A DNA stretch of 64,000 bases from an uncultured Sphingomonas sp. (GCA_963521395.1 CAUQTY010000005.1:115354-179353), one strand, 5' to 3'. Positions 1,178 through 63,470 are shown, counted from the first letter of the stretch. Notes: a model not told the origin generated them from the letters alone. Made by a program: numbers and translations.

Positions 1178-1240
1178 CCGCTCCTGGTGGAGAGCGGAAC
1201 GACCGCCTTCTGATCGTATCAATAGGATGCAGACATTCTC
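1178..1240 (+). repeat. Junction repeat, copy A (partial)
   Basis: TGGTGGAGAGCGGAACGACCGCCTTC at 1185 aligns by eye with the copies at 4400, 38650, 49170 and 53634. Confidence 0.6.
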
Positions 1241-1350
1241 CTTGGGGAGTCCAGTAGCGTCCTCGCCGCACTCTCGGGCAATTCCAGTGGACTAATGTCG
1301 TGCCGCTGCAGCAATAGGGCGATCATCCATCTCGATATGAAAGCGTTCGA

Positions 1351-4158
1351 ATGATCATGGAGGGCAGTAACGACAGTGTTTTAGTCCTTCTTTCGATCCT
1401 AGTCGCCAGCTTTGCCTCGTTCACAGCGCTCAGCCTCGCGGGTCGGATACGCGCCTCAGCGGGCAGAATGCGCAATGTCTGGCTTGGGGCTGCCGCCTTG
1501 GCGCTCGGGGGCGGCATTTGGGCGATGCACTTTGTTGCGATGCTCGCTTTCAGCATGCCTGGCATCATCATGACCTACGAGCCGGGACTGACAATCCTGT
1601 CGTTGGTTCTTGCAGTGTCGTTCACGGCGGGCGGCTTCTTCGTGATGGATTCCCGAACGGCATCTTCCCGTCGGGTGCTCGGCGCGGGCCTGCTCATGGG
1701 CAGCGGTGTTGTTGCCATGCATTACGTTGGGATGGCGGCCATGCGCATGGACGCCACGCTCACGTACACGCCAGCGTGGGTAGCTCTTTCGGTACTCATC
1801 GCGGTTGGCGCAGCTACTGCTGCAGTCTGGCTGTCGTCGCTGGAGCACCAGATCAACCGACAGGTGGCTGCCGCTTTGGCGATGGGCGCGGCTATTTCGG
1901 GCATGCACTACACGGGCATGCGGGCGGCGGCCTTCACAGCATCGCAGGGGGTCGACAACGCCATCGGCGAAGCGGGCGTAACCCAGTCGTTCTTGGCCTT
2001 CTCTATCAGCGGCATCACCATCATCATCTTGGTGCTGGCCTTGGGTGCCGCTGCGCTCGAGCGCTCTTTTCAGGCCTATGCTCGGAGGGAGTCACAGGCG
2101 ACGCTTCGCGTGAGGATCGCAGACGTGCTGCGTGAGGGCGACACCAAGGAAGCCTTGAACGAGGTAGCCGCCCTCATGGGTCGTTATTTCAGTGCCAACC
2201 GCGCGGGCTATGCGCAGCTCGATCCCGTCGAGGACGTATTCGACTACGAGGTGTGTTGGACCGATGGGTCGGTCCCTGACCTTTTAGGACGCTTCCCGGC
2301 GGCCGATTTCGGTGTGAAGATCGTGGCCGAACTTGCGGCCGGGCGCACCGTCGTCGTGAGCCACCTCTTGGAAGCGGAAGTCAGCGACGAATACAGGACT
2401 CAGCAGACGGCCAGAGACGTCGAGACACGGTCAATCCTAGTCGTCCCGTTCGTTCGGGACGGACGCCTTCGCACCATCGTGTACCTGAACTCGTCCGCTC
2501 CTCGCCTGTGGCGAGACGAGGATGTCCGGTTCATGGAGGAGATTGCGGAGCGGACGAGGCTTGTGGCCGAACGCGCGGCTGTTGAGGAAGAGCTGCGCCT
2601 GCTCAATGCGACCCTCGAAGCCCGGGTCGAAGCACGCACTGCCGAGCTACGTCAGGCAGAAGAAGCTCGTCGAGAGGCCGACGCCCTTTATCGCGCCTAC
2701 TTCCGGTACACGCCAGACCCCCTGTTCGTCATCGGCGTAAGCCCCAATGGCGATTTCACGATCGAGCAGATCAACCCAGCCCATGAAGCGGGTGTGGGGT
2801 TTGCTGCCGACGAGGTGCGCGGCCGCAGGATTGAAGAGGTGTTACCCAGCGAAGCGGCCACCAAGGTGCTCGCGGTATATCGTCAAGTCGTCGAAACCGG
2901 GCAAATCCTCCATCTTCGCGACGTCTTCGAGCTGTCGGATGGCCCTAGACACTGGGACACGACTCTGGTGCCGCTCCGAGATGAGGAGGGTCGCGTCGTC
3001 CGCCTCATCGGCTCAAGCCGGGACGTGACCGGCCAGGTGGTTGCCGAAGAGGCACTGCGTCAGTCTCAGAAGATGGAGGCCATGGGACAGCTCACAGGTG
3101 GTGTTGCCCACGACTTCAATAATCTCCTCACGCCGATCGTAGGCGCTCTCGACCTGCTCCAGCGGAAAGGCGTCGGGGGCGAGCGTGAACAACGCCTCAT
3201 AGCAGGCGCTTAGTAGTCCGCTGAACGCGCGAGGACATTGGTTCAGCGCCTGCTGGCCTTCGCGCGCAGGCAGCCGCTGCAGCCCGTGGCCGTAGATCTC
3301 CCCAAGCTTGTGACCGGCATGGCGGAGCTGATCTCCAGCACAACAGGCCCACAGATCAAGGTCGTGGTCGATGCTGCGCAAGACTTGCCGCCTGCAAAGG
3401 CCGACCCCAACCAGCTTGAAATGGCAGTCCTCAACCTGGCAGTGAACGCCCGCGATGCGATGCCTGAAGGAGGCACACTTCGGATCTCGGTCGAGGCGGC
3501 GACGGTCGGCAGGCAACACCGGTCGCAATTAGAGCCCGGCCGCTACCTGCTGCTCTCTGTGGCAGATACTGGCACAGGCATGGATGAGGCGACACTAGCC
3601 CGTGCTGTAGAGCCGTTCTTCTCCACCAAGGGCGTAGGCAAAGGGACTGGCCTTGGTCTCTCCATGGTTCATGGTTTAGCCCAGCAGCTTGGCGGTGCCG
3701 TCACCATCCGGAGTACTGTTGGCGTTGGTACGAATGTTGAGCTCTGGTTGCCGCAAAGCCGAAGCTCCTCGATGGCCGCCGAAGAGGCATCTTTCGGTCA
3801 GGTTGAGCTAACCGGCCAAGGAACTGTGCTTCTGGTGGACGACGAGGATGTAGTGCGTCTTAGCACAGCCGACATGTTGATCGAGCTTGGGTATCAAGTG
3901 GTGGAAGCCAGTTCCGCCGAGGAAGCGCAAAGTCTCCTGAATCGAGGCTTGAATCCACAGCTCGTGATCACGGATCATCTAATGCCCGGAATGTCAGGGA
4001 CGGAACTGGCGAGAACACTGCAGAGCCAGAGGCAGGGCATCAAAGTCCTAGTGATCTCAGGCTATGCAGACACGAGTGGCATTGATCCTGACCTGCCCCG
4101 TTTGACCAAGCCCTTTCGCAATGCCGAACTCGCAGCAAGCTTAGCGGCGCTCAATTAA
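1351..4158 (+). pseudogene. MHYT-GAF-PAS-HisKA-HATPase-REC hybrid histidine kinase, interrupted by in-frame TAG TAG at 3211-3216
   Basis: MHFVAM/MHYVGM/MHYTGM repeats; H-box [11 protein letters not shown]; the same frame resumes after the two stops (SAERARTLVQRLL) into the HATPase N/G boxes and the receiver domain. Confidence 0.9.
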
Positions 4159-4390
4159 CGCCGATCTATGCGGCAGCAAAGCGAAGGGTGCCCGCCTCGC
4201 GACATATTCAGTGGCGTATCAAGCCGGTGGCTGGCCGGCGCTTTCAGCGGGCGAAGGCTGCCATCGGCACGGCGCCCCCAACACTGCGGGCAGCCCGAAT
4301 TCACTTCCTTCGAAATACGCCTGTGTGCCGTCCGCAATGCTGCCCAAAAGTCTCCGGCCGTTTCATGCAGATGCGATCGCCCACTCATAA

Positions 4391-4572
4391 GTCTGCTGCT
4401 GGTGGCAAGCGGACTGGCAAATTGTTGGGCGAGCAACACGGAAAGGCTGCCGTTTGTTCAGACGAACCGAGGCGTCAGCTGAGCGCCCACTTCAGTCGTC
4501 TGTAGGCGGAGGGGGCACCCGTAAGCGGACGTTTTCTTAAGCAGTGGTCACGGGCGAAATCTGCTTACCACC
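4391..4572 (+). repeat. Junction repeat, copy B
   Basis: TGGTGGCAAGCGGAC at 4400 and GGCACCCGTAAGC at 4514, the same spacing as in copy D; inverted CTGCTTACCACC at 4561-4572. Confidence 0.7.
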
Positions 4573-4631
4573 TAGAGCGTAGATGCGAGACCAAGGACGT
4601 CCGCTGCTAACTGGCACGGAGAACCAATAAA

Positions 4632-46025: not shown

Positions 46026-46147
46026 CTTGACCTCCTTCTAAGTGGTGATCGAAGCAGGCTCTCCGGCGATGCTTCTGCCACGGATTCTTGATCTAAGCGG
46101 GTTGTTCGACGCGGCGCCCCGCCCATTGGAGGGGCGCCCACGTTTGC

Positions 46148-46735
46148 TCAGAAGCGCAGACCAACGCCGGCCAGCACCTCATTCTTGCTCACGTCCTGCT
46201 CGTAATTGGAGTAGCGATACTCGCCCTTCAGGTAGGTATTGGAGCTGAGGCCCTGCTCCACCCCGAGGCCAAGCCGGTAGCCGTCGAGGTTCGTCGCGCT
46301 GCTGAGGCTCACGCCGGCAATGTTGCTGTCTGCGCTAAGACGAAGGTTCGTGTAGCCGGCCTTGCCGTAGAGAAGGGTACGTGGGCCCACCTGAGCGCCG
46401 AGGCGTGCCGAAAAGTCGAAATCGCGGCCTGCATCCAAGCTCGCAGTGTCAGTGCCATTGGTGAAGGTCCGCTTGGCCGTCGACCAGGTCACACCGGCCT
46501 CGACGCCGGCGACCAGTCCCCCGCCAAGTGGAGCGTCATAGCCGATCGAACCACCGAGCGTGACACCCTTAGGGTGAGCACTGTCGCTTGTGCCGAGAGC
46601 GGAGAGATCAAAATCGAGCCGATCAAGCCCGACGGTCACCTCCGCACGGGGTCCGGTGAAGTCGGCGGCAGCGGCGGGAGTGGAGGCAGCGGCAGCAAGG
46701 ATGGCGGCAGCGAACAGTCCGAGGGGGGTCTTCAT
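46148..46735 (-). CDS. Small outer-membrane beta-barrel protein
   Basis: Signal peptide; FTGPRAE; IGYD; LLYGKAGY; KGEYRYSNY; terminal GLRF. Confidence 0.88.
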   Translation of the reverse strand: MKTPLGLFAAAILAAAASTPAAAADFTGPRAEVTVGLDRLDFDLSALGTSDSAHPKGVTLGGSIGYDAPLGGGLVAGVEAGVTWSTAKRTFTNGTDTASLDAGRDFDFSARLGAQVGPRTLLYGKAGYTNLRLSADSNIAGVSLSSATNLDGYRLGLGVEQGLSSNTYLKGEYRYSNYEQDVSKNEVLAGVGLRF

Positions 46736-46881
46736 GGGTCAGGTCCTTCCTGTCTTCTAGGGTCCGACCGCGACAAGGGGGTGGTGCCGCGGCCGGTGGA
46801 CCAGCTTCTGGAGTGGAAAGATCACCGCCGAATGCCGCCTTTGTGTCGCTTCCCGGCAGCGGTGACACAAAGTTGCAGAGG

Positions 46882-48225: not shown

Positions 48226-48935
48226 CGCCGGGTGACCTTAGGCAGGAACATATAGCCCTCGCCGCGCAGAGTGCGGATGAGCTCTCCATCGCTGCGGCTG
48301 CCGAGCTTGCGGCGAAGCCGGCTGACTTGCGTGTCGACAGCACGATCGAACGAATCGCTGTCAGGCCCGCGTGCATGTTCCAGCAGCTGGTCGCGGCTCA
48401 GAACCCGCTGCGGCCGCTCCACGAGGACCCTCAAGAGGGAGAACTCCCCTTCGGAAAGGGTGATGATCACACCCTCGGGGTCGCGAAGGATCCGGCGAAC
48501 AGCGTCCAGCGTCCAGCCGTCAAACTGGTATGTGGCCGAACGCTCGGCCGCCACCTCGGCAATAGGTTGCTGGCGCCGCAGCACCGCTCTTATTCGCGCT
48601 AGCAGCTCTCGCGGGGAGAAAGGCTTTGGCAGGTAGTCGTCGGCTCCAACTTCAAGTCCTATGATGCGGTCCGTTTCGCTTCCTAGCGCCGACACCATCA
48701 CTATCCCTAGGTCGCGGCGTTGGCTGAGCGACCGGGCAATAGTCAGCCCGTCCTCACCCGGCATCATCACGTCGAGCACGACGATGTCGACCGGTTCGGT
48801 TTCAAGCACCGCTCGCATGGCAGCGCCGCCCTCTGCTTGGCTTACCCTGAAGCCGTGGCTCGCTAGGAAGTCGCTCACCAGCCCTCGCAGGGCCGGATCG
48901 TCGTCGACGACGAGGATATACGCAGTTTCGGTCAT
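48222..48935 (-). CDS. OmpR-family response regulator
   Basis: MTETAYILVVDDD; LDVMMPG; KPFSPREL; VDTQVSRLRRK; TLRGEGY. Confidence 0.93.
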   Translation of the reverse strand: MTETAYILVVDDDPALRGLVSDFLASHGFRVSQAEGGAAMRAVLETEPVDIVVLDVMMPGEDGLTIARSLSQRRDLGIVMVSALGSETDRIIGLEVGADDYLPKPFSPRELLARIRAVLRRQQPIAEVAAERSATYQFDGWTLDAVRRILRDPEGVIITLSEGEFSLLRVLVERPQRVLSRDQLLEHARGPDSDSFDRAVDTQVSRLRRKLGSRSDGELIRTLRGEGYMFLPKVTRR

Positions 48936-48946
48936 GATCAGCTTAT

Positions 48947-49000
48947 TTGTGTCACAAGGTTGCGGCAACGCTATGTCGCTCATGACACATGCTGACACAA
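48947..49000. promoter_or_regulatory. Putative OmpR-type direct-repeat box (GACACA-N4-GACACA)
   Basis: GACACA at 48984 and 48994; the same box reversed at 43970/43980; single sites at 46841-46870. Confidence 0.55.
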
Positions 49001-49088
49001 AGGTAGATCGCTGCGGCACCCGTGCGATCTAGGCTGTCGCCATTTGGTTGCGAATGAGTGTTCCGAGGCGGGGCTAGCGTCCGCTTAG

Positions 49089-49300
49089 ATGTCAAGCTTG
49101 GCTGAAAGCAGACGGACTACTTTCGGCCACTTGCCGACGCTCGGTCTGAGCGAGCCGAACGCCTGCCCCTGGTGGTAAGCGGACTGACTGCTTTCGGGTG
49201 AGCACTGACGGATATCCGACGTCCGTTCATGCGGAGAGCGAAGTCGGCATAGCTCCCTTCTCGGTCAACGAGGCTGAGTAATTGGCACCCGTAAGCAGAA
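49089..49300 (+). repeat. Junction repeat, copy D (longest)
   Basis: CGGCCACTTGCCGACGCTC at 49124, TGGTGGTAAGCGGAC at 49170, GGCACCCGTAAGC at 49284. Confidence 0.85.
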
Positions 49301-49328: not shown

Positions 49329-52300
49329 TCAGGCGTCGGGGCCGCTCGGCTGATCAAGCATCCCCAGCTTGGCCGCAAGGTCCGACTGGCGGAACGGTTT
49401 GATCAGTCGAGCAAGGTCGGGTGCCACGCCTTCTGCTTCGGCGAAACCGGAAACTAGCAGAATGGGCAAAGATGGACGGGTCGCTCGTAACTCGCGGGCG
49501 AGATCCGTCCCGTTCATTCCGGGCATGAGGTGATCGGTGACCAGAAGATCGTATTTAGCACCCGCCTTGATCAGGTTCAGAGCGTCCTCAGCGGACGAGG
49601 CCTGCAGGACTTCATAGCCCAAGTCACCAAGCATATCGGCAGTGCTCAGCCGGACGAATTCTTCATCGTCAACCAGGAGTGCTGTCCCGGTGCGGCTGCT
49701 GATTGGCGTAGCTTGTGCTGTGCTCTCGGCGACGACTTCGGCGTTCGCTGTCGCTGGAAGCAAGATCTGCACTTTCGTTCCGACGCCTGGCGTGCTCTTG
49801 ATGATCAGCGCGCCACCCAGCTGAGAGGCTAAACCGTGCACCATGGAGAGCCCAAGGCCAGTTCCACGACCTACACCCTTGGTAGAGAAGAACGGCTCAA
49901 CTGCACGGCTCTGGGTCTCTTGGTCCATGCCAGCGCCAGTATCCGCGACGGACAATCGTACGTATTCGCCCGGCTTGAGACCTTGGTTCGCCGCATCATC
50001 AATTGTTTGAAGGTCTGCAGAGATACGGAGCACCCCTCCATCGGGCATGGCATCGCGAGCGTTCACGCTTAGGTTCAGGATCGCCATCTCGAGCTGGTTA
50101 GCGTCGGCGACAGCGGCTGGCAGGTTGGGCGCGACCTCGACAGCAACCTTGATCTGCGGACCTGTGGTGCTCGCTATGAGATCAGCCATGCCGCTGACGA
50201 GTGTGCCTATAGCGACTGGGCGGGCTTGCAGTGGCTGTCGACGGGCGAAAGCAAGCAGCCGCTGAACAAGTACCCGCGCCCGCTCAGCCGACTGCAGGGC
50301 TCCGTCAATCAACCTTGCTTCGCGGTCGCTGCCGAAGCCCCGACGCTGAAGAAGATCTAGCGAGCCAACGATGGGGCTCAGGAGATTGTTGAAGTCGTGA
50401 GCGACCCCACCTGTTAAGGCACCCATGGCCTCCATCTTCTGGCTTTGTCGGAGTTGTTCGTGGGCGTCCTGCAGCTCTCGGGTGCGTTCATGTACCCGAG
50501 CTTCCAGAGTGTCGTTTAGCTCGCGAAGCTGGAGTTCGGCCTCCTTATGCTCTGTGGTGTCGATCTGGATGCCATCCCAGATTAGCGAACCATCTTCCTG
50601 CTCGCGTGCTGCCGAGAGTATGCGGCACCAGCGAACGCAGCCATCCGTCCTTCTAAAGCGCATTTCCACATCGAAGGGCGCCTTGTTCCTGATGGCATCG
50701 GCCTCTGCCTGCACCATCAACTCGCGGTCTTCCTCGAGGACCAAGTGATAGGGAATAGTCGGGTCGGCCAACACCGCATCGGCAGGAATACCGGTGAGCT
50801 TCTCATGGCTTTGTGAGACGTACAGAAAGCGACGGTCAGTGCCGTCAGGGCCAGTGGAAATCTGGTACACCATGCCGGCCGGCAAGTTATCGGTGAGGGC
50901 ACGTACTCGTGCTTCGCTTTCTCTGAGTGCTGCTTCGGCTGAGCGGCGGGCTGTGATGTCGATGGCCGTTCCGACCAAACGGACGCACTGATCGCCCTCG
51001 AAGAGCCCACGTCCCTTCGCCGCTACCCAGCGGACCACACCATCTTCTTTGCCGACGGTGCGGTACTCTACGTCATACAGTGCACGCTGACCCGGGTCGC
51101 TCGCAGCGGCGAAAGCGCTGGCAGTCGACTCGCGGTCATCGGCATGAAGGCCAGCGTAGAAGTCAGCCATCGACACGGGTACGTCTGGTGAGATGCCGAA
51201 CATGGCCTTGACCCGGGGCGGCCAGGTCAGAACATCGTTGACGACGTCGACGTCCCAGAAGCCGACCTCAGCATTCTCGGTCGCCAGCCGCAGCTGTTCC
51301 TCGCTCTCGCTCAGCGCAGCCTCGATCATCTTACGATCGTGAATGTCGGTTGAGGTACCGAACCACCTGATGATCTCGCCCGTATCGATATCAGCTTGTG
51401 GGTCGCCCCTGACCAAGAACCAACGGTAGTCGCCTGTCGCCGAGCGTATGCGGTGCTCAACGTTGTACGTCTGGCCGCTTTCTCGAGCGGCGTTAAATGC
51501 GGCCATGGTCGGAGCAGCATCCTCTGGATGCGTGAAGTCGCGGCTGACTTGTTCCGCCGATGAAGGCATCGGCTCAGCCCCAGTATACTCGAACCATTGC
51601 CGATTGAAGTATTCGACTTTCCCGTCCCCGTCCGTGACCCACACGATCGACGGTATCGCGTTGGTCATGTCGCGAAACTGAGCTTCACTCTGGCGAAGGC
51701 GCTGTTCGGCAATCTTTGTGGCGGTCACGTCACGGGACACGGACAGAAGCTTCTCCGGTTTGCCGTCTGGCCCACTGATCGGTGTGACGATGACATCCCA
51801 GCACCGTTGGTTGCCCATCATGGTGTCAGCGCAGCCTTCGAAGCGGCCCGTGCCGCCGTCTTTGGCAACGCCGATTGCCTCTAAAGCTTTGTGGCGTTCG
51901 TCGGCAGGCCAGAACTCAGACCAGGATCGGCCTGCAACGTCGCTGAAGTCGTCGACCTCCATCAAGCACAGGGCACCAGCACTCATGAACTCAAGACGGC
52001 CGCACAGATCCAGGACCTTGATGCAGTCAGCCGAACTAGCGAGTACCCGGCGGTTGAACTCCTCGCTTGCGCGCAGCGCTTCAGTGGCCTCATGGCGATC
52101 GGTCAGGTCGGCGGAGACAGCAAGGACGGCGCGCGGTCGGCCGTGCTCATCTTGGAGGCAGGTAAGGCTGCTGTTCGCGAACAGCAGCGACCCATCCGGC
52201 CTCAAGTAGCGCTTGTCGAACGAAGCAGGTGCCCCTGTTTCGACTGTGGCCCTGAAGGTCTCGAGGCTTAACGCGACGTCCTCGGGGTGGGTGACATCCG

Positions 52301-53390
52301 CCACGGTTGCGGCGAGCAGTTCATCACGAGACCGGCCGAGCATCCGGCAGAGCTCGTCGTTGACACGCTCGAAGCGGCCTTCGAGCGAAATCTCGGAAAG
52401 CCCAACCGCCGCATGAGCGAAGATCGCTGAGAGTTGCGCCTCGCTTTCGCGACGCTCGATATCTGCCTGTGCGCGCTCCGCGGCGGACCAGGTTCGTTCA
52501 GCAATCTCGAGAGCGAGCGCCACATCCTCCTTGGACCAAGTGCGCGGCACGGCGCTGTGGATTGCGAGTACCGCCGTCAGCCTCTCGTTCTTGACCACAG
52601 GTATGTTAATGAAGCCGACGATACCTGCGCGCTCGAAAGCCGCGAGTGCCTCTGGCGTCGAAGTGCGCCGATCAAGCCTCACGTCAGTGATGGTAATGTT
52701 CTCACCGCGCCTGAGGTCGGCAATATAGCCGGGCCCGTAGTCGTCGAGTTGATGGCGCCTCGCGTTTGCCACCATCGTCCCGTCGTTCCATTCGCGATTG
52801 ATGATGACGGTCTTCCCGCCAGGCTCGACTTGGGCGTAGGCGACCTGCGAAACGTCCAGAAACCGGCCCAAGGCCTCGGTGGTAGCCGCAATCGCTTCCT
52901 CCGGGTCCGTTAAACCGCGAAGCCGTTGCTCAAGCGACAGGCGGAAGGCTTGCCGTTGAGCATGGGCGCGCAGATCCACCTCCGCTTTTTTTCGAGCGTC
53001 GATGTCGATGTTCATCCCGACCCATTTGTCGATCTTTCCATCGGCATCGAGCACGGGAGCGGCTCTGACGTTGGTCCAGCGCCAATGGCCATCAGGCGAG
53101 CGAAGGCGGAACTCGGCGTCCACAATCCCTTGCTCTGGGACGGCCTGCCGCCACTGCCGCTCTGCATACTCGCGGTCTTCAGGATGAACGGCGTCGAGCC
53201 AGCCAAAACCCAACCACTGTTCGAGCGTTTGGCCGGTATAAGCACGCCAGCTTGGGCTGTCGGCAACGACGAAACCATTGCCGTCGGTTTCCCACACGGC
53301 CTGAAGGAGGCGGTGCCGCGCGTCGCTTTCACGCAGCGCGGCCCGGGCTTCGAGAAGCTCGCCGGCCTCTTCATGTTCCGATGCACTCAA
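49329..53390 (-). CDS. Cytoplasmic multi-PAS/GAF hybrid histidine kinase with receiver domain
   Basis: Several PAS/PAC repeats (HPED..., DIT.RK..E); [14 protein letters not shown]; HATPase; REC (LLVDD, TDHLMP, KPF); TTG start. Confidence 0.93.
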   Translation of the reverse strand: MSASEHEEAGELLEARAALRESDARHRLLQAVWETDGNGFVVADSPSWRAYTGQTLEQWLGFGWLDAVHPEDREYAERQWRQAVPEQGIVDAEFRLRSPDGHWRWTNVRAAPVLDADGKIDKWVGMNIDIDARKKAEVDLRAHAQRQAFRLSLEQRLRGLTDPEEAIAATTEALGRFLDVSQVAYAQVEPGGKTVIINREWNDGTMVANARRHQLDDYGPGYIADLRRGENITITDVRLDRRTSTPEALAAFERAGIVGFINIPVVKNERLTAVLAIHSAVPRTWSKEDVALALEIAERTWSAAERAQADIERRESEAQLSAIFAHAAVGLSEISLEGRFERVNDELCRMLGRSRDELLAATVADVTHPEDVALSLETFRATVETGAPASFDKRYLRPDGSLLFANSSLTCLQDEHGRPRAVLAVSADLTDRHEATEALRASEEFNRRVLASSADCIKVLDLCGRLEFMSAGALCLMEVDDFSDVAGRSWSEFWPADERHKALEAIGVAKDGGTGRFEGCADTMMGNQRCWDVIVTPISGPDGKPEKLLSVSRDVTATKIAEQRLRQSEAQFRDMTNAIPSIVWVTDGDGKVEYFNRQWFEYTGAEPMPSSAEQVSRDFTHPEDAAPTMAAFNAARESGQTYNVEHRIRSATGDYRWFLVRGDPQADIDTGEIIRWFGTSTDIHDRKMIEAALSESEEQLRLATENAEVGFWDVDVVNDVLTWPPRVKAMFGISPDVPVSMADFYAGLHADDRESTASAFAAASDPGQRALYDVEYRTVGKEDGVVRWVAAKGRGLFEGDQCVRLVGTAIDITARRSAEAALRESEARVRALTDNLPAGMVYQISTGPDGTDRRFLYVSQSHEKLTGIPADAVLADPTIPYHLVLEEDRELMVQAEADAIRNKAPFDVEMRFRRTDGCVRWCRILSAAREQEDGSLIWDGIQIDTTEHKEAELQLRELNDTLEARVHERTRELQDAHEQLRQSQKMEAMGALTGGVAHDFNNLLSPIVGSLDLLQRRGFGSDREARLIDGALQSAERARVLVQRLLAFARRQPLQARPVAIGTLVSGMADLIASTTGPQIKVAVEVAPNLPAAVADANQLEMAILNLSVNARDAMPDGGVLRISADLQTIDDAANQGLKPGEYVRLSVADTGAGMDQETQSRAVEPFFSTKGVGRGTGLGLSMVHGLASQLGGALIIKSTPGVGTKVQILLPATANAEVVAESTAQATPISSRTGTALLVDDEEFVRLSTADMLGDLGYEVLQASSAEDALNLIKAGAKYDLLVTDHLMPGMNGTDLARELRATRPSLPILLVSGFAEAEGVAPDLARLIKPFRQSDLAAKLGMLDQPSGPDA

Positions 53391-53587: not shown

Positions 53588-53690
53588 CGGCCACGTGCCG
53601 CCGCTCAGGTCCAACCTGCCGTACTTCCGCTGGTGGTGGGAAGCGGAATGGCCGCTCTCGGCGCATGGTGGGCGAATAGCCGACACTCGA
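53588..53690 (+). repeat. Junction repeat, copy E
   Basis: CGGCCACGTGCCGCCGCTC at 53588 and TGGTGGGAAGCGGAA at 53634, the same 46-nt offset as in copy D. Confidence 0.75.
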
Positions 53691-53822
53691 TGATACGAGA
53701 GGGACGCAGAGCAGACGATAGCTCAGCTCGGTGGCGTACTGCGCTGTTCTTTTGCTCCGAAGCGGCGTCCGCTCACTGCATTGCAGTTGCGTACCTGATC
53801 TGCCGGCGGCACTGGAGGTTGA

Positions 53823-54530
53823 ATGTACGCCAGCCTTTCGCTGAAACGCTTGTCCTCGGCGCTCGCCATCTCGTTCACGATCGCTCTACTGATCGTTGTG
53901 ACGCTTCGAGGCATGCCCAGCGGACTTTCTGGTTGGGGGCGCCCCGTGTCCACGGCGCTGACGTGGTGGTCCGTGACGCTGGTTATTCTGTTCGGATGGT
54001 CCGGGAAGCTGGCACCCTGGCGTATGATCTGGTGGTGCATCCCACCACTCAACAAGCTTGTCTTTCCGGATCTCAACGGAAAGTGGCAAGGCAAGCTACA
54101 ATCTAACTGGTCGGTGTTTCAGGAGATGCTTTCAGCCGCGACCGCCCGCAATAAGAAGCTCGAAGAGAAAGACCTGCCGGACATTCCGCTCAAGCCGGTC
54201 GACATCGAGCTGATGATCACGGCGTCATTGTTCACCTTCCGTATCGAAGCGAAGGTCTCTGGCGTCGACGGTACGTCGCACTCTATATCCGAGCGCATTC
54301 AGAAGGACGAAAAGCGGGATCGTTTTGAGCTGTTTTACGTCTACGTTCAGGAGACGCCGCAGCCTTCCGCTACCGACGAGGCTTCTCATCCAGGCTCAGC
54401 CCGGCTTGACGTCGACACGAGCGCTTGGGCTCTGAAGGGTGAGTATTGGAACCGCCGCAAGTGGCGCTCGGGCTTCAACGCTGCGGGCTTGATGGAGGTG
54501 ACGCGGAAGGATCGCGGTGGTTGGTTCTGA
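53823..54530 (+). CDS. cap15: Cap15-like CBASS effector (2 TM helices + beta-barrel)
   Basis: GGAGG RBS; two N-terminal hydrophobic helices; FPDLNGKWQGKLQSNW; LFYVY; H.GSARL; LKGEYWN.R. Confidence 0.78.
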   Translation: MYASLSLKRLSSALAISFTIALLIVVTLRGMPSGLSGWGRPVSTALTWWSVTLVILFGWSGKLAPWRMIWWCIPPLNKLVFPDLNGKWQGKLQSNWSVFQEMLSAATARNKKLEEKDLPDIPLKPVDIELMITASLFTFRIEAKVSGVDGTSHSISERIQKDEKRDRFELFYVYVQETPQPSATDEASHPGSARLDVDTSAWALKGEYWNRRKWRSGFNAAGLMEVTRKDRGGWF

Positions 54531-55013
54531 CTAGGAACTGTTATCCGACCTCGACGTAAGCTCGTGATGCCGTGTTCCGTCATGGATGAGCAGCAGCAAG
54601 CCGCGCGGCCGTTCGACTCGCCCGACTATCACGAAGAGCAGACCATTCATTCGGTGTCGTGATAGGCGCACTCGGGACGAAAAGGTCTTTAAGTCTCGAG
54701 AGGAAGGTGACGGCCGCTTCTGCGGATGCGTGTGCCAGTCGCCGACATAGTGCAGGTCCTGGCAAAAATAAGCATCGATTTCCCGCTGCTCGGCTCGACG
54801 ATCGGATTGATAGGAGAATGGCGTTCGGATGTCGGTCGGTCGAGGCCCGGTTGCGAAAACAATCCTGATTTCTTTCCCGGCGATGCGTGCGAACAGCAGT
54901 CCCCCGGCCTCCCTATGCCAGAACCTCGTCTGCTGGTGCCTGCGGAAGTGGCTTAGCACAGAATGGTCGATCACGACGCGCTCGCCCGAGGTTCCGACCT
55001 CATAGAACATCAT
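54531..55013 (-). CDS. cap3: Cap3 JAB/MPN isopeptidase
   Basis: EAGGLL; ATGP; GDWHTHPQKRPSPSSRD; ATGA-coupled to cap2. Confidence 0.9.
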   Translation of the reverse strand: MMFYEVGTSGERVVIDHSVLSHFRRHQQTRFWHREAGGLLFARIAGKEIRIVFATGPRPTDIRTPFSYQSDRRAEQREIDAYFCQDLHYVGDWHTHPQKRPSPSSRDLKTFSSRVRLSRHRMNGLLFVIVGRVERPRGLLLLIHDGTRHHELTSRSDNSS

Positions 55014-56749
55014 GGGAGCCCGTTGCCGCCGCATGCCCGGCAATCAAGCACTGGCATCCACTCGAACACCTGGAGCCGACCGCTCTCAGCCCCGGCGCCG
55101 CAACGCGTCGTCCATGCCTGGCTCCACTGCCCACCGACGCTTTCGACCGCTGCGGCGCGGCCGCTCACCGCCCGGTGCTCTCCTACATCTGCTCTCCCGA
55201 GAAGATGATCGAGGGCGAGATCGGCGGCGAGGCCGGCCGCCATCATAGTCGCCGTAGGACCATATGGCTGGAAGAAGGCACCGCAAGCGGGAGCCTGCTT
55301 GAGAGTCCGCTCATCGAAGTCGACCACTTGGCCCTTTGGCTCACCGTGGCGTCCGAGGTGGCACTGCAGGCATCCCGAGCCCCGCCCGAGCAGCACCGCA
55401 TGTGCAGCAGCACCGTGGGGCTCTAGCCAAGCGTAGATGGTTGGCGGGGTGCCTCGCGTCAGCTGCAAGGCGTTGAGCTCGCCTTCTTGGCTCCAGCTGC
55501 CTACTGCGGCGATGACCAGTTCGGAGTTGGCAATGACGTCCGCAAGCTCCTGCCAAGGCTTCTCGTGCGCATTAAAGCGGCCGTGTGGAAAATCGTGCCC
55601 GAGCAACTTGGCAAGACGCTCGGCCTTGTACTGGCCCACGCTGTCCGCACCGAGCGCGTGCCGTCCGATGTTGGCGAATTGCAGCAGTTCAGGATCGATG
55701 AGGTCGAGGCACCCCACGCCGGCCTGTGCCAAGAGCCGGGCAAGGGGACTGCCGATGGATCCGTTGCCAATGATGGTGATGCTTGAGGAGATGAGATCGG
55801 TGAGGTCGGCATTGCCGTCGCGGCCGTGCACCCACCATGGATCGGCTCGATCGACCGCCAGGCGAACGACCTTGAATGCGTTGTTGAGCGTGTGCATCGC
55901 GCCAGCGCCGTAGACCTTCATGATCCGTTTCGCGACGTGAACACCGTTTGCACCCAGCCTCACGCCGGCGAAGCAGGTACCATTCCCGGTCGAGGCACCG
56001 AACAGCACGAGAGGGTCTGTCTTCACGTCGCGGAGGAGTCCGAGCAGTTGCTCCCCCGCCCCGACTGAAATGGCAAGGCTCAAAACCTCGTCAGGTGTTG
56101 AGGGATACTGATCCGGCAGGAGAGGTGCAGGCAACCAGACGAGCAGGCCTGTCCCGACCCTGATATCGGCCACGCTCTTCTTTCGGAGAAAGTTGGCGAG
56201 CCAATTGCGGAGTTCGTCTTCATCCTCAGCAGCGAGCAGAAGCTTCTTGCCGTCCCAGAAGCGGATCAACCGGCTGGGCCCGCACGGATGAACGATGGAG
56301 CGTGCGGTGCCGTTGGTAAGCGGATCCCAGTAGGACAGGAACTCCGACCTAAAGTCGTCCGCGTTGGTACCGTTGATTCCTTCCGTGAGCACGCGAAGTG
56401 CACCCGCAAGGCTCGCCGCAGCCACGCCGATCGGCTCGTCGGGGTCGGCCTCGTCGACATCGGCGAAGACACAGATCAGGCCAGAAGCTTCGACATGCGG
56501 GTAGCTCGGGAACTTAGGCGGATTGGCCAAAGCCACCCGAGGCTTCGACCAAGGAAACCGTTCGTCGAGCAGCACGCGCAGCCCGACGTCCGTTCCGGCG
56601 ACCTTGGTCGATATCTCCCACGCGTGAGAGAAGCCTTCGAGGAAATCGCCGGGAGGCACCTCAGTCGCCCCGAGGGTCGCAGTAAGCCAACGTTCGAGCT
56701 TGGACACCGCTGCCACCCGGCTGGTGCCGGGCGGCTGCGGTTCAGGCAT
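55010..56749 (-). CDS. cap2: Cap2 E2-E1 (ThiF) fusion
   Basis: E2-like FPWSKP..PHVEASGLIC; ThiF IGNGSIGS, LIDPE, NIGRH; CLQC and CRAC zinc pairs; PACG catalytic Cys. Confidence 0.9.
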   Translation of the reverse strand: MPEPQPPGTSRVAAVSKLERWLTATLGATEVPPGDFLEGFSHAWEISTKVAGTDVGLRVLLDERFPWSKPRVALANPPKFPSYPHVEASGLICVFADVDEADPDEPIGVAAASLAGALRVLTEGINGTNADDFRSEFLSYWDPLTNGTARSIVHPCGPSRLIRFWDGKKLLLAAEDEDELRNWLANFLRKKSVADIRVGTGLLVWLPAPLLPDQYPSTPDEVLSLAISVGAGEQLLGLLRDVKTDPLVLFGASTGNGTCFAGVRLGANGVHVAKRIMKVYGAGAMHTLNNAFKVVRLAVDRADPWWVHGRDGNADLTDLISSSITIIGNGSIGSPLARLLAQAGVGCLDLIDPELLQFANIGRHALGADSVGQYKAERLAKLLGHDFPHGRFNAHEKPWQELADVIANSELVIAAVGSWSQEGELNALQLTRGTPPTIYAWLEPHGAAAHAVLLGRGSGCLQCHLGRHGEPKGQVVDFDERTLKQAPACGAFFQPYGPTATMMAAGLAADLALDHLLGRADVGEHRAVSGRAAAVESVGGQWSQAWTTRCGAGAESGRLQVFEWMPVLDCRACGGNGLP

Positions 56750-58007
56750 TCCGATTATCTCCGCCGATCTTCACCGGGGCGCGTGATTCCGGCTCCTTGT
56801 CGAAGTCGCCAAGGATGCCGGAGCTGAGGATGTTAGCCGAGGTGACCTTTTCCATGTCGACCAAATCCGGCTCGACCGGCAGGAAAGACCCGAGGACGTT
56901 GTGCAACGACGCTACTACTCCGTCCGCCGTAGGCTCGGCGAGAGCCGCCCGAAGACCGTCCCTGAGCGCCTCTGCGGCCGACACGAACTCGGCCCTGCAC
57001 TCGTCCCAATTCTCGTCGAGACGCTGACCTTCGACAACTGGGTTGTCGATCTTCCCGCGCAGCAGACCGGGCAGCGCTTCAGCTACCATCAGCAGGGCGA
57101 GATCGTCCCGTTTTGCGCTCGGGCTCATGGCACTCGCTTCGTAGGCCGATACCGCAGTCGCCATGAGCGCGATGGAGCTGAGCCTGCAGGTGTCCCACTC
57201 GTGGTCGCGCCATCCCTTGAGGTAGCGGCAGACCCGCCGCAGCTGCTCGCCATGCTCTCGAACGGCGGCCTTGAACCAGTCCTCTAGCTTGCGCGGATCG
57301 GACGGCTTCCAGCCCTCGTGCCGGTGGGCAAGCATGATGTGATCTTCCGGCAGGGCCGGGTACACGTAGCGCTCAAAACGCGCCGTCTCGTCCAGTGCAG
57401 TGAATGTGCCATCGGCGATTCCGCCCAGGCTTGCAGTCGTGCTGCGCTCTGCCTTCTCCAGCAGGGTTTGATATTCCCCGTCAGGGATCGCATACAGCGC
57501 GAGGTCGATGTGAGCCTCGTCATCGACGATGACCCGGACACAGGATGGCTTAGGCTCACCAAGTTCCCACCCCTTCTTGGCGCAGAGGGGCTCAAGGATG
57601 GTCTCAACGGCCGTGAAATAGGCGTCGCTGACGATGGCTGGGTGAACCGTTCCGCCGTCAGTCAGGAAGGACGTCGGCAGGAACACGCCGTCATCGAGGT
57701 CGATCTCCTGCGGCGGGTGCTGAGTGGCGCGGTTGAGGGTCGCATACGACCAGCTTCCCTGCATGCGGAACTTGGGGCGGAGAGTAGACAGGCTGGCGAA
57801 CTCCAAGCTGCCGAGAGCCCGGTCCTCGAACAGCTCCTGCCGCTTGATAACGTCCTGCCAGTCCGCGAAACCCGACCTGATTTCTTCCCTGATGTCTTCG
57901 CGAGCCGCCCTTAGCAGCTCACGCCGCTCCTCTTCGACCGTCAGCTGGTTCAAGTAGGAGTCGTTCCCAGCTGCATTATAGAGCAGCCGATGCGCGTTCG
58001 CCGCCAT
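56742..58007 (-). CDS. CD-NTase (cGAS/DncV-like cyclic oligonucleotide synthase)
   Basis: FRMQGSWSYATLN..PPQEIDLDDGVFLP; KPSCVR; HIDLALYAIP; SDPRKL; CRYLKGWRD; LSSIALM; C-terminal Ala. Confidence 0.92.
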   Translation of the reverse strand: MAANAHRLLYNAAGNDSYLNQLTVEEERRELLRAAREDIREEIRSGFADWQDVIKRQELFEDRALGSLEFASLSTLRPKFRMQGSWSYATLNRATQHPPQEIDLDDGVFLPTSFLTDGGTVHPAIVSDAYFTAVETILEPLCAKKGWELGEPKPSCVRVIVDDEAHIDLALYAIPDGEYQTLLEKAERSTTASLGGIADGTFTALDETARFERYVYPALPEDHIMLAHRHEGWKPSDPRKLEDWFKAAVREHGEQLRRVCRYLKGWRDHEWDTCRLSSIALMATAVSAYEASAMSPSAKRDDLALLMVAEALPGLLRGKIDNPVVEGQRLDENWDECRAEFVSAAEALRDGLRAALAEPTADGVVASLHNVLGSFLPVEPDLVDMEKVTSANILSSGILGDFDKEPESRAPVKIGGDNRNA

Positions 58008-58119: not shown

Positions 58120-58192
58120 AGAACGAACGGCTGCTTACGGGAGACGGCGAGAACGACTTGAACTTCGGCTTGTGGGTCGAAGCTGCCGGAAC
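58120..58192. repeat. Junction-repeat-related fragment
   Basis: CTGCTTACGGGA (58130) nearly reverse-complements the CCCGTAAGCAG block of copy D; GGCTTGTGGGTCGAAGCTGCC hairpin unit. Confidence 0.4.
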
Positions 58193-58284
58193 GAACAGCG
58201 GTCCTGTCACCTCGCGGACGGCGCTCTCAAGACGCTGACTCAGGGGCGATCGCAACTTGGACAGTGCGCGCGGGTTGAGAGGCG

Positions 58285-58374
58285 ATGACGCCATCCTTCG
58301 ACAACAGCTACGCCCGCCTGCGCGAACGCTTCTTTGCCAAGGCGAAGCCGGCGCCTTTTTCGGCACCGACACTG
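58285..58374 (+). pseudogene. N-terminal remnant of a SelO/YdiU protein adenylyltransferase gene
   Basis: GAGAGG RBS then MTPSFDNSYARLRERFFAKAKPAPFSAPTL, like the alphaproteobacterial YdiU start (FDNSYARLP..F....P.P...P.L); similarity is lost afterwards. Confidence 0.55.
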
Positions 58375-58656
58375 ACGGCTTCCGCGACGACGAGCGCGTC
58401 GTCGTCTTCTATAAAGGTCAGGGCTTTGAATTCGCGCTGGCTGCTCGCGGCAACGGTGAAGGGCTCGCTGGTGGGGATGGAGCTGAACGTCGAACCTGCG
58501 GGCCAGGCACGCGAGGGGAGCGTGCTAATCAGAATAGAAAAGACCTGAGGTTTGTCCGTCACCGCCGGTCAGGAACCCACAAGCGCAATCCCCAAGGCGT
58601 GTTCAATCTCCCGTCATCATCGAAATGCTTCTCCAGTGAACGCCTGATGCATTCGT

Positions 58657-59397
58657 TTATTGCTCTCCCCAGAATACTTTCTTGATGAAATTCAACCCTT
58701 CCCAGCCCTCTTGCTGCCACACCTGAAAAGGAGTGCGTGCTCCGATTGCACTGCCCTCCGCCCAACTCCTTCGCCACCAAGCAGCATAGCCTCGTGGTCT
58801 GACGTGAAGTCTAAGTGCCTCGTGGAAGATTAAGACGCGTCTGAGCTGCAGCAGCACATCAGCGGTGACCGCGACCTCGTGATGGCGCCACGACAGAAGA
58901 TAGCCCACCTCGACGCCCAACATCTGCTCAAAGGTCTCGTCGTCCATGTCCCAAGCGGCGGGAATAAGATCTAAGCAGCTCTCCAGATCCTTAGCGATGT
59001 CGCGCTTCGACCCGCTCATTTCGAACCTGAAGCCAAGAGGGTCGGTCGGGTGAGCTTGTGCTATCTTAACGACATCGTTGAGTAGGCTCAGCGCCCAGAA
59101 TCCACCTTCCTCGAGGTACATTAGTGGGGGAGCACCCCCGAACTCATCGAAGATGGAGCTGTGGTTCAACCACCGACCCACCGCTTCTTCTGACCCGAGC
59201 ACACTAACCAGCCCCGTGACGAGCTCGTGAAACAGTTCGGCCCGGTCCAGTTCAGGCCCATTGAACGGAAGCAGCTCGTCCTGCCGTGACGAAGGGCGCT
59301 CGAGAATACTGTAGAAGGCGTAGTCTTGGCCAGTGTGGTCGATTGTGAAATTGAACATCCATTCGCGGAGGAGTTCTGGATCGATACCTTCTGACAT
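58657..59397 (-). CDS. Protein with two Xre/MbcA/ParS-type antitoxin C-terminal-like domains
   Basis: GGAGAAGG RBS then MSEGIDP; LGSEEAVGRWLNH..FGGAPPLMYLEEGG, and an HTH-like segment followed by AAWWRR..IGARTPFQVWQQEG. Confidence 0.6.
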   Translation of the reverse strand: MSEGIDPELLREWMFNFTIDHTGQDYAFYSILERPSSRQDELLPFNGPELDRAELFHELVTGLVSVLGSEEAVGRWLNHSSIFDEFGGAPPLMYLEEGGFWALSLLNDVVKIAQAHPTDPLGFRFEMSGSKRDIAKDLESCLDLIPAAWDMDDETFEQMLGVEVGYLLSWRHHEVAVTADVLLQLRRVLIFHEALRLHVRPRGYAAWWRRSWAEGSAIGARTPFQVWQQEGWEGLNFIKKVFWGEQ

Positions 59398-59714
59398 GCC
59401 ACCTTCTCCACACCGACGTCTAAGGCCGGACTTCCGAATGTGCAGGAGGCGGACCGGGACCGAGCCGGGTGTTGGAAACCTGGACTTACGCACAGGCGCC
59501 GCCGCCTTTGGGCGGTGCCTTGGACATGCGCGACGGCCACCCGGCCAGAATGACCGGTGTCGTAAGTTCAGGGGTTTCCACGCCCCGCCGGCGAGCTTTT
59601 CTACGCCGACAAAATGATGCTTACAGAACCTCGACCAGCCTGCAAGCTTGCTTGCGAGGATTTATAGATTCACTCAGGAACCTTGAGGTCCGGCCTTTTC
59701 CGCCTTCGGCGGTT

Positions 59715-59766
59715 GCGTGCGTTGGATTTGCAAAGTGCAGTGGCGCTTTGCAAATCCAACGCACGC
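59715..59766. repeat. Perfect 21-bp inverted repeat near the island end
   Basis: GCGTGCGTTGGATTTGCAAAG (59715-59735), 10-nt spacer, CTTTGCAAATCCAACGCACGC (59746-59766). Confidence 0.95.
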
Positions 59767-59854
59767 TCTGGAGAACTTTGAGTAGGTGGTTTGAGTAGCA
59801 CTACTGATGCAAAGCACGGATTTTGCGGTAGAATTAGCAGAGCGGGGCGAGGAA

Positions 59855-60727
59855 GAGATCAATGCCGCGCTTCTGTCCCGCGCGCAGGTGCTGGTCCTGC
59901 ACCGCCTCGACGAGCCCGCACTGGCAACGCTACTGGAGCGCGCCGAAGCTATTACGGGCAAGCCCCTGCCCCTTGCCGACGACGCCCGCGCCGCGCTGAT
60001 CGCGAGCGCCGATGGCGACGGCCGCTTTCTCCTCAACCAGGCCGAGATGCTGTTCGCCGCCAGGCTCGACCAGCCGCTCGACACCGCCGCCCTGCGCGAA
60101 CTCATCCAGCGCCGCCTGCCGGTCTACGACAAGGATCGCGAAGGCCATTACGGCCTCATCTCCGCGCTCCACAAGTCGATCCGCGGCTCCGACCCGGATG
60201 CCGCCCTCTACTATCTCGCGCGCATGCTGACCGCCGGCGAGGAGCCGCTGTACCTCCTTCGCCGCCTCACCCGCGCCGCCGTCGAGGACATCGGCCTAGC
60301 CGATCCGCAGGCAGTGGTGCAGTGCATGGCGGCCAAGGACACCTACGACTTCCTCGGCTCTCCCGAAGGCGAACTCGCCATCGTCCAGGCATGCCTCTAT
60401 CTCGCCACCGCGCCTAAATCGAACGCGCTCTACGTGGCGCAGAAGGAAGCGTGGGCAAGCGCCAGGGAGCATGGCTCGCTTTCCCCGCCCAAGCATATCC
60501 TCGGTGCGCCGACGAAGCTCATGCGGGACCTCGGACACGGCAAGGGCTATGCCTACGACCATGATGCGCCGGACGCCTTCTCGGGCCAGAACTACTGGCC
60601 CGAGGAGATGAGCCCGCAGACCTACTACCGTCCCACCGAGCGCGGTTTCGAAAAACGCCTTGCCGAGCGGCTCGCGTGGTGGAACGACATGCGCAGGCAA
60701 CAGCAGCAGCAAGGGGAGCGAAGCTGA
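59855..60727 (+). pseudogene. rarA: Replication-associated recombination protein A, 5'-truncated (no Walker A/B)
   Basis: Homology begins at EINAALLSRAQV (normally ENPSFE.N.ALLSR); YDKDREGHYGLISALHKSIRGSDPDAALY; EDIGLADP; APKSNA; PTERGFE. Confidence 0.88.
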
Positions 60728-62046: not shown

Positions 62047-62891
62047 GGGGGTTCACCCGCACTGTCGCCATCGACTGGTCAGGCGCGAAAGGCAGGCGGC
62101 ACCGGGGGATCGCCATCGCCGCCTGCGGGTCCAGCGGGCCGCCACGCCTGGTTCGCCCCGGCCACGTGTGGAGCCGGACGGAGGTGGCCGACTGGTTGGT
62201 CGCGCAAGCGGCGCGTGAGCCGACCCTGTTCGGCTTCGACTTCTCCTTTGCGCCCCCCTTTGCCGAGCGCGGCGCCTACCTGCCGGGCGAGGCGGACGTG
62301 CCTGAGAACGCCCGCGACTTCTGGGCCTATGTCGATGCCAAGGCACCCGACGAGGACCTCGGCGCCGCAAGCTTCCTGGAGCAGGTTCACCGCCCCCACT
62401 TCTATTTCGGGATCGCCGACGGGGTGAAGGCCGACTTCGTCCGCTTTCGCCAATGCGACCACCGGCTCAACGCCGCGGGCGGGCGCAAGACCGCCAGTGC
62501 CTATGATGCCATCGGCGCGGCGCAGGTCGCCAAGGCGAGCTTCGCCGGCATGCGCCTCCTCCACCGCATCAGCGGCAAGGTCGCGGTCTGGCCAATGGAT
62601 CCGCTTCGTCCCGGCGATAGCGCGGTGGTGGAGATCTACACCCGGATCTACCTGCGCAACGCTGGCCTGTCCGGCACCAAGCTTCGCACGCGGACTGATC
62701 TCAACCTTGCACTACGTGCTCTGGGCAGCCCGCCCGCCCGGCTCCGCTTCGAGCCCGATGATCACCAGACCGATGCACTGGTCACCGCTGCCGGGATGCG
62801 CGCGCACCTACAGCATCCCGATGCATTCAGCCCGCCGGGCCTCACACCGCAGCTCGCACGCACCGAGGGCTGGACCTTCGGCATCGTCTGA
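62043..62891 (+). CDS. DUF429-like RNase H-fold hypothetical protein
   Basis: The frame extends upstream of the listed start to VAIDWSGA (probable CTG start overlapping the upstream TGA); GFDFSF; VEIY; DHQTDA; EGWTFG. Confidence 0.7.
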   Translation: MRGFTRTVAIDWSGAKGRRHRGIAIAACGSSGPPRLVRPGHVWSRTEVADWLVAQAAREPTLFGFDFSFAPPFAERGAYLPGEADVPENARDFWAYVDAKAPDEDLGAASFLEQVHRPHFYFGIADGVKADFVRFRQCDHRLNAAGGRKTASAYDAIGAAQVAKASFAGMRLLHRISGKVAVWPMDPLRPGDSAVVEIYTRIYLRNAGLSGTKLRTRTDLNLALRALGSPPARLRFEPDDHQTDALVTAAGMRAHLQHPDAFSPPGLTPQLARTEGWTFGIV

Positions 62892-62908
62892 GCCAAGAGG
62901 CGGCCCGC

Positions 62909-62984
62909 GCCGGTTTAGCTCAGTTGGTAGAGCAGCGGTTTTGTAAACCGAAGGTCGCGGGTTCGAATCCTGCAACCGGCACCA
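62909..62984 (+). tRNA. tRNA-Thr (anticodon UGU)
   Basis: GCCGGTT/AACCGGC acceptor stem; TAGCTCAGTTGGTAGAGC D-arm; TTTGTAA anticodon loop; GGTTCGAATCC; encoded CCA. Confidence 0.97.
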
Positions 62985-63159
62985 ATCTTTTCAACGACTT
63001 GGCCTAGGTATGCGGTTAAACCGTGTTGCGAGCCATGGTCGTGTTGTTCCGCAGTTTTCCGCCGAATTCAATTCGCTCCCGCCGACTCCGTGCAACACAG
63101 ATGCAACACAGCGCAGGATCTTTGTTCACGAATCGTTCGCTGTCGCTTACTCTCTCGGG

Positions 63160-63393
63160 GTGAGCAGAGACGAAAAGCGACCCAGCCTTATCGCCAGCGG
63201 CCCTTCCATTCTCCGCATTGGCTTTGACCCTGCGGCTTTCGCCAAGCTCTTGCCCGATCAGCAGCAGGAGTTTGTCCGCTGGCACGTGGCCCGCGTTCTG
63301 AATGGTCAGGAAAGCGCAGTGGCCGAATGGGAGCGCATGGGTCTGAAGGTTTATTTGAGGCCTTGGGAACGATTCCTTCCTCATGCAAGCTAG
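63160..63393 (+). CDS. Small hypothetical protein
   Basis: Protein-like stretch from GTG 63160 to the TAG; no recognisable family. Confidence 0.35.
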   Translation: MSRDEKRPSLIASGPSILRIGFDPAAFAKLLPDQQQEFVRWHVARVLNGQESAVAEWERMGLKVYLRPWERFLPHAS

Positions 63394-63470
63394 TGTCCGC
63401 AATTGGCCGAAAGCGGAACGGCAGCTTGTGCGCGAGTGCAGCGAAAACCGGACAATCGATCAGCTAGCGG
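63394..63470 (+). repeat. Junction repeat, copy F (variant)
   Basis: TGTCCGCAATTGGCCGAAAGCGGAACGGCAGCTT resembles the core plus the following unit (AAGCGGAACGGCTGCTTT in copy C). Confidence 0.55.

Follow-up and report, generated by a model that had tools for sequence, protein, structure and literature searches.

FimB and FimE are tyrosine recombinases of about 200 amino acids (aa) that lack a separate core-binding domain. Passages considered here from a classification of tyrosine recombinases name no group consisting of a catalytic domain only (PMC8138268). Among systems that move genes between short sites, pdif modules are flanked by inversely oriented sites, according to a title cited in PMC9455709, and the distribution passages of an integron survey report no integrons, In0 elements or attC-site clusters without an integron integrase (CALINs) in 243 alphaproteobacterial genomes, an absence termed puzzling there (PMC4889954). 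Short palindromic repeats are also described; in the description cited here, CGTC-type repetitive extragenic palindromes (REPs) combine an unpaired tag with 8-9-bp stems and 4-5-nt loops (PMC3733652). We analyzed a 64,000-nucleotide stretch of DNA (the window; C5:115354-179353) from an uncultured Sphingomonas sp. with a genome of 2.88 Mb and 66% GC, in which a degenerate repeat, present in seven copies named A to G from left to right, separates unrelated gene modules. These repeats very probably mark points at which gene modules are exchanged. We further consider it probable that they are double-stranded sites cut by a small tyrosine recombinase that adds or swaps modules in arrays, the role of that enzyme being likely on the sequence evidence.

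Shared DNA between genomes ends at the 6-bp core of the repeat. At copy G, the window and a related genome (G498) are identical across 70 bp, the left arm and the core, and then fall to 58% identity over the right arm and about 50% further on; core-genome genes of the two are 77-85% identical, compared with 97-100% from 63000 through the left arm and core of copy G, and the cargo of G498 beyond copy G differs from that of the window. At copy F, a metagenome contig from run X1 matches 58121-58589, and its first 242 bp are unrelated. Its 18 differences comprise 13 listed substitutions and 5 that are unlisted; of the former, eight fall within 58152-58171, including five in the left arm, and the other 5 in the next 418 bp. 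Outside 58152-58171 the match is approximately 98% identical. Given this clustering and the unrelated first 242 bp, we place the switch at core F, 58174-58179. The breakpoints at copies G and F are free of pattern-selection bias. A 74% match to another genome (G508) begins at 4400, where the core of copy B starts. In a comparison of loci from which L060 and L160 were omitted as overlaps, sharing in four independent pairs is limited to downstream DNA, starting with the core (L063/L068 at 99.8%, L050/L204 at 98%, L052/L065, and L170/L185), and in two further pairs to upstream DNA, through the core (L061/L063 and L043/L200). Together, L061, L063, and L068 confine the switch to the interval from the base preceding the core to nine bases past it, and L052 and L065 have a 433-bp core-to-core unit in common between different neighbors; every clean breakpoint pair has its core in common. 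When alignment ends were left free (omitting L200, L062, and L158 as near duplicates), 14 of 36 ends at ≥90% identity lay within 65 bp of a core (null mean of 1.5, maximum of 7 in 2000), as did 19 of 89 near a core at 85% identity versus a null of 2.3.

The earlier note on this DNA had described a repeat of about 130 bp, and such a repeat is real, but its basic unit is a 30-bp site with two arms; the 130-bp repeat represents a compound form of that site. Two inverted 12-bp arms flank an asymmetric 6-bp core, and the outer ten letters of the right arm read AGCGGACATT. Sites of the "simple" type have no accessory part and a core that is mostly GGGTCG or GGGTGG; they give 53 matches in the genome and 0 in a shuffled genome. 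Sites of the "compound" type consist, in order, of a worn left arm, the core TGGTGG, a good right arm, and a second palindrome, whose left arm lies at +14 in 98 of 133 copies and whose right arm lies at +41 to +43 in 85 of 133, with further, rarer arms near +88, +106, and +122. A block seen 46 nt upstream of copies D and E is indeed present, but it is not general, as the 133 compound copies show no conserved column upstream of -12. Mean column identity among copies is 51%.

Both site matrices combined identify 68 sites in the genome (50 simple and 18 compound), with 0 matches for either matrix in a shuffled genome. Although 87% of the genome is coding, 64 sites lie outside called genes and 4 inside, and 56 of the 68 fall in the 15% of genome windows below 63.5% GC. 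Neighboring sites within 40 kb are co-oriented in 45 of 55 cases (13 of 14 for compound neighbors), and orientation is independent of the flanking genes, all four classes occurring. The median unit between simple sites is 1006 bp; between compound sites it is 2.7 kb, with lengths of up to 34 kb. Strict alternation of core types along arrays was not seen. Nearly all of the pattern-carrying records are from Sphingomonas or Sphingomicrobium (30 of 31 from sphingomonads).

In 101 simple sites, complementary arm pairs at each of the 12 positions are as frequent as independent arms would predict; A-A mismatches prevail at two of these positions. Window copies fold little better than shuffled sequences (z from -2.4 to +1.1 over 12 strands), and attC boxes, with the consensus RYYYAAC...GTTRRRY, were found in 0 of 7 copies on either strand. 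The lack of arm covariation points to double-stranded protein-binding sites rather than hairpins, RNAs, attC sites, or REPs; independent arms would be expected if each were a protein-binding half-site reassorted by recombination. Two inverted arms around an asymmetric core, where exchange maps, fit the description of a tyrosine recombinase target site, in which such a core measures 6-8 bp. At loci that were not chosen by pattern, the first base of the core is T for 24 of the 29 right parts of compound sites versus 3 of 75 simple sites. This tie between core type and site type points to matching across more than two bases and so suggests tyrosine rather than serine chemistry, since serine recombinases require identity at the two central bases only.

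A co-occurring recombinase, for which a search had been proposed, was not found among the 61 open reading frames (ORFs) of the window that were scanned; a candidate is encoded elsewhere in the genome. PF00589 matches 12 proteins, namely XerC, XerD, large island integrases, and four short proteins. Three of the short ones (210, 207, and 210 aa) are copies of the candidate small recombinase and are encoded on C1, inside the densest cluster of sites. The stop-to-stop frame of 211 aa leaves this small recombinase no room for a core-binding domain, and in the predicted model (predicted local distance difference test score of 84.8) only a disordered 22-residue tail and one helix precede the catalytic region. 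Its six catalytic residues, R61, K89, H158, R161, H184, and Y193, show no variation among 27 sequences. Genomes with relatives number 58 of 251 in the order and 32 of 251 in the phylum, and 338 plasmid records also carry them; viral contigs held no close relative (52 distant loci), phage records gave one partial match, and a search of solved structures returned only Xer-type proteins at E values of 1e-10 or weaker.

Genes for this candidate enzyme lie next to site arms. An arm is found ≤250 bp away at 21 of 29 loci from the family and 18 of 28 from the phylum (L264 being omitted as it comes from the same genome as a family match), compared with 1 of 12 large tyrosine recombinases (12 loci only, as the search returned few), 9 of 27 serine recombinases (omitting 3 of 30 loci without a parsed gene), and 262 of 2277 of the genome's own ORFs. 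Arm density is 2.0-2.2 per kb near the gene versus 0.4-0.55 further out, a 4- to 5-fold difference, and arms adjoin the gene across alpha-, beta-, and gammaproteobacterial hosts. At C1:1055577-1056412, a small recombinase gene is closely flanked by sites, and homology between the copies in different genomes ends at or near them; the gene therefore appears to travel as a module itself. The fourth short tyrosine recombinase (~205 aa; C1:1253715-1254332) is of a different sequence type and lies in a low-GC region with no scored site nearby.

Within the window, the copies and the modules between them are as follows; module families were assigned by Pfam, for which 61 of 195 listed ORFs were scanned.

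1178-1299, + strand: copy A, compound site with core 1185-1190 (exact motif and profile)
1351-4158, + strand: module A-B, an MHYT/GAF/PAS sensor kinase gene and a HATPase-receiver gene (Pfam)
4391-4528, + strand: copy B, compound site with core 4400-4405 (exact motif and profile)
4762-38568, no single strand: module B-C, a 34-kb acyl-CoA/oxidative catabolic cluster with no internal site (Pfam and matrix scan)
38643-38776, + strand: copy C, compound site with core 38650-38655
38835-49019, no single strand: module C-D, two two-component pairs, RcnB, DUF3500, PepSY, and outer-membrane genes (Pfam)
49124-49142, - strand: reverse-oriented sub-site, 46 bp upstream of core D
49162-49297, + strand: copy D, compound site with core 49170-49175
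49329-53390, - strand: module D-E, a lone 1353-aa multi-PAS hybrid kinase (Pfam)
53588-53606, - strand: reverse-oriented sub-site, 46 bp upstream of core E
53626-53762, + strand: copy E, compound site with core 53634-53639
53823-58007, no single strand: module E-F, a cyclic-oligonucleotide-based antiphage signaling system (CBASS) with Cap15, JAB, E1/E2, and CD-NTase (Pfam)
58121-58195, + strand: copy F, worn, the remnant of a second palindrome and a simple-type core at 58174-58179 (breakpoint against the run X1 contig)
58196-59854, no single strand: last module of the rarA island (~97% in run X1, with another upstream neighbor there)
59855-60727, + strand: 3' part of rarA/mgsA and right end of the island
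62909-62984, + strand: tRNA-Thr(TGT), anchor of the second variable region
63000-63403, + strand: small module from tRNA-Thr to site G, with an ORF at 63010-63393 (97-100% identical in G498)
63392-63529, + strand: copy G, a simple-type left arm, core 63404-63409, and a compound right part (base-exact breakpoint against G498)

The core motif is exact at 1185, 4400, 38650, 49170, and 53634, every time on the + strand, as had been reported (chance mean of 0.25; 0 of 100 shuffles reach 6); a sixth match with one mismatch, at 39389, lies within a kinase gene and is scored by neither site matrix. A profile grown from the genome's own copies recovers six full copies in the window (A to E and G) and 29 genome-wide at E < 0.001. 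The supposed variant at 63404 turns out to be a full copy (profile match 63395-63529, E = 3.5e-14), and the fragment near 58130 is real but worn, below both site matrices. An ungapped alignment of copies C and D extends over 116 nt at 76% identity, and the block 113-114 nt downstream that B, C, and D were said to share is present as described. All window copies lie on the + strand, the stretch from 59.9 to 63.0 kb is site-free, and no further site emerges from the window even at lowered thresholds. The sub-site at 49124-49142 probably belongs to the end of the upstream module.

Pfam upholds the module labels given earlier, except for "SNase," where three ORFs at 683-1295 have no family at E 0.1. 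Copies do lie between modules, but the statement that they mark nearly every junction was somewhat generous, since the 10.5-kb C-D and 34-kb B-C blocks hold several operons with no intervening site. In the CBASS module (53823-58007), the Cap15 effector gene faces the JAB, E1/E2, and CD-NTase genes. No family scored above the cut-off for the ORF at 58657-59493 in the last island module.

Similarity to relatives begins abruptly at about 59855, within rarA/mgsA, and C5:108293 is joined directly to C5:175208 in 9 of 10 relatives fetched, which places copies A to F and one more site in a single 67-kb island in rarA. The additional site lies 120 bp before the window start. The island (C5:108293-175208) has its left end 7 kb before the window and its right end at about 59855; the left end (L315:2428-9009) encodes tyrosine recombinases of 463 and 1034 aa, the latter with PF13009, and also carries a full-length replacement rarA. 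The genes of these two integrases are 2.4-7 kb to the left of where the window starts. A second variable region, behind tRNA-Thr, opens at copy G. On the other side, 7-10 kb right of the window, there is a convergent pair of large serine recombinase genes at L316:8071-11722 (C5:186070-189721), each bracketed by minus-strand compound sites. Near the right end of the island, a conserved noncoding element at 59445-59594 matches many family genomes and at least 14 sphingomonad plasmids, folds with a z of -2.6 on the + strand, and has no Rfam family; it may resemble leader RNAs of mobile elements. Just inside the same end, 59714-59767 forms a long, near-perfect inverted repeat with arms of ~20 bp. 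The Rfam scan gave tRNA-Thr as its sole match at gathering score and nothing credible by E value in 57.9-64 kb.

If the small recombinase acts at these sites, one subunit would bind each arm, and strands would be exchanged across the core, which would mostly have to match between partners. Recombination of co-oriented sites could then excise a module as a circle, insert one, or swap everything beyond the site, with the right-hand part of a site moving with the downstream module and the left arm with the upstream module. The extra arms of the 130-bp form (the +14/+42 palindrome and the weaker ones near +88 to +124) might be accessory binding sites that compensate for the absent core-binding domain or set direction; alternatively, older events may have left them behind as stacked remnants. 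Encoded here on another contig, the enzyme would act in trans. The whole island would be moved at rarA by its own two large integrases, and the sites would govern turnover of its internal cargo.

Several observations weigh against this account. Of the free alignment ends at ≥90% identity, 22 of 36 lie away from sites; the pattern used to choose most comparison loci has its start at the core and so favors ends there; and pairs and genomes are related, so that p values are overstated. For modules A to F, neither a clean empty site (the module precisely missing and one site left) nor a circle was seen, the run X1 data, which are contigs only, contained no excision joint at a core, and 300 family genomes, five close relatives, and plasmids held no near-identical copies of modules A to E; none of 200 same-genus genomes yielded the CBASS E1/E2 gene. 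Neighboring simple sites have identical cores in only 7 of 30 pairs, differing mostly at position 5, compared with 8 of 12 pairs of compound neighbors; strict 6-bp identity can therefore not be the whole rule, and either some core mismatch would be tolerated or neighbors would often not be partners. Serine recombinase genes are also near arms above background (33% versus 12%). The small recombinase is present in 5 of 9 genus genomes with simple-site matches and 3 of 7 without, although the site pattern misses variants (G187 has matrix matches near its small recombinase gene). Five site-rich genomes have no small recombinase by profile search, three of them being in 2-3 contigs, and only 14 of the 68 sites in the source genome, none of them in the window, lie ≤20 kb from a small recombinase gene. 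Such sparse linkage is compatible with an enzyme that acts in trans or acted in the past, by analogy with CALINs, but also with another enzyme.

That other enzyme could be the host's XerC/XerD or an unrecognized factor, the sites being true crossover sites and the small recombinase merely a frequent cargo module. We think this improbable, though it fares best among the alternatives. The genome encodes both XerC and XerD, the geometry of the sites is dif-like, and a single dif-like candidate (C2:215559, - strand; G453 and G188 have orthologue-like matches) has, on its XerC side, a short block in common with the site arm; the site-rich genomes without the small recombinase and the lack of genus-level co-occurrence point the same way. 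Yet the inner arms of this candidate, and of its counterparts in those two relatives, differ from the sites, which contain neither the inner dif arm letters nor the XerD arm, and the common block is missing from the candidate dif of both G188 and G453, the latter a genome with 30 sites. Arms adjoin the small recombinase in all three proteobacterial classes, two to six times more often than they do other genes, and site clusters without an enzyme are common for integrons too, as part of the integron survey reports (PMC4889954).

The earlier note offered two readings, an integron-like accretion system and REP-like elements or miniature inverted-repeat transposable elements (MITEs). The first is supported by copies that are intergenic, island-bound, and co-oriented, with shared DNA ending at the 6-bp core; the second is not, since the stems lack covariation and the breakpoints are located within the element instead of at the ends. 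Nonautonomous REP/MITE-like elements that gather in islands and seed homologous recombination would account for many degenerate, partly palindromic copies and for their abundance in genomes without a dedicated enzyme. However, at 51% mean column identity the copies are too diverged for homologous exchange, and exchange points fall at the core and not along the repeat; folds are weak, the flanks of the seven copies share no duplication by eye, co-orientation stands at 45 of 55, and the build of CGTC REPs, as far as that source describes it (PMC3733652), is unlike that of the sites. We regard this rival as already largely refuted and quite unlikely to be correct.

Still less plausible is that the 130-bp form is a res-like site of serine recombinases, made of a crossover sub-site and accessory sub-sites. 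Its length and one-sided accessory arms recall Tn3-type res sites, compound sites bracket both of the large serine recombinase genes found right of the window, and arms occur near 9 of 27 resolvase genes. A serine enzyme's two-base requirement would nevertheless mix simple and compound core types, which stay apart; the small tyrosine recombinase shows a stronger association with arms (Fisher p = 0.007), and simple sites have no accessory part. Regulatory elements or small RNAs (promoter or terminator cassettes) traveling with modules are scarcely credible, as they would leave the base-exact breakpoints unexplained and Rfam matches only the tRNA, with no covariation and no fixed orientation to flanking genes, even though the copies are always intergenic and copy E contains a weak terminator-like hairpin at 53730-53748.

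We found no description of the site and enzyme in the literature, with most subscription journals and all supplements outside the search. The pPDL2 integrase of Sphingobium is a different system of 328 aa, judging by the sections cited here (PMC3516476), and no support was found for a Paracoccus plasmid repeat named PIRS in the portion of the literature consulted (PMC3832669). It is an even call whether exchange by the small recombinase amounts to a third general gene-capture system beside integrons and dif modules, in which a catalytic-domain-only recombinase, spread on islands and plasmids of Proteobacteria, would work in trans at dozens of short sites in each genome, building arrays of modules that range from one gene to 34 kb, anti-phage systems included. 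If so, it would explain how Alphaproteobacteria, reported to be without integrons, keep their islands stocked, giving a testable answer to the puzzle of mosaic islands in integron-free genomes, and the compound 130-bp type would be an adaptation to large cargo. For annotation of defense, signaling, and catabolic cargo, the sites supply exact module limits; a very common but unexplained "integrase family protein" would be assigned a likely job, and engineering would gain a compact tool in a 210-aa recombinase paired with a 30-bp site.

Compared with described repeats, the sites are, like CGTC and GTAG REPs and the CIR repeats of Caulobacter, short, intergenic, palindromic repeats of Alphaproteobacteria, but they have no unpaired tag, an 8-10-nt spacer, and no stem covariation, and they are confined to islands. 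GANTC, the hallmark of CIR repeats, occurs in 2 of 7 copies. They differ from MITEs in that breakpoints fall inside the element and that no duplication is shared by the flanks, by eye. The small recombinase resembles the short invertases FimB and FimE in having no separate core-binding domain and gives a weak profile match (E of 5e-5 for the 207-aa copy), but it scores 23 bits against a cut-off of 222, and dozens of sites per genome bound cargo, unlike one invertible switch. With pdif modules of Acinetobacter, which are served by XerC/XerD, the system has in common a short, double-stranded two-arm site, a 6-bp core, and the exchange of multigene modules. In contrast to pdif, the arms are one palindromic sequence unrelated to the host's inner dif arms, there are a dedicated candidate enzyme and compound forms with extra arms, and the sites are mostly co-oriented, set against the inverse orientation given in the cited title (PMC9455709). 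Like integrons and CALINs, it combines co-oriented arrays of sites between unrelated accessory genes, defense cargo included, with a tyrosine recombinase; site clusters persist with no enzyme nearby, and simple-type units are about 1 kb long. Unlike integrons, the sites have no attC boxes and no hairpin constraint, the 210-aa enzyme scores 26 bits against an IntI cut-off of 265, and modules can be as long as 34 kb and contain operons of their own in either orientation, in Alphaproteobacteria, the class that the consulted part of the survey reports to be free of integrons (PMC4889954).

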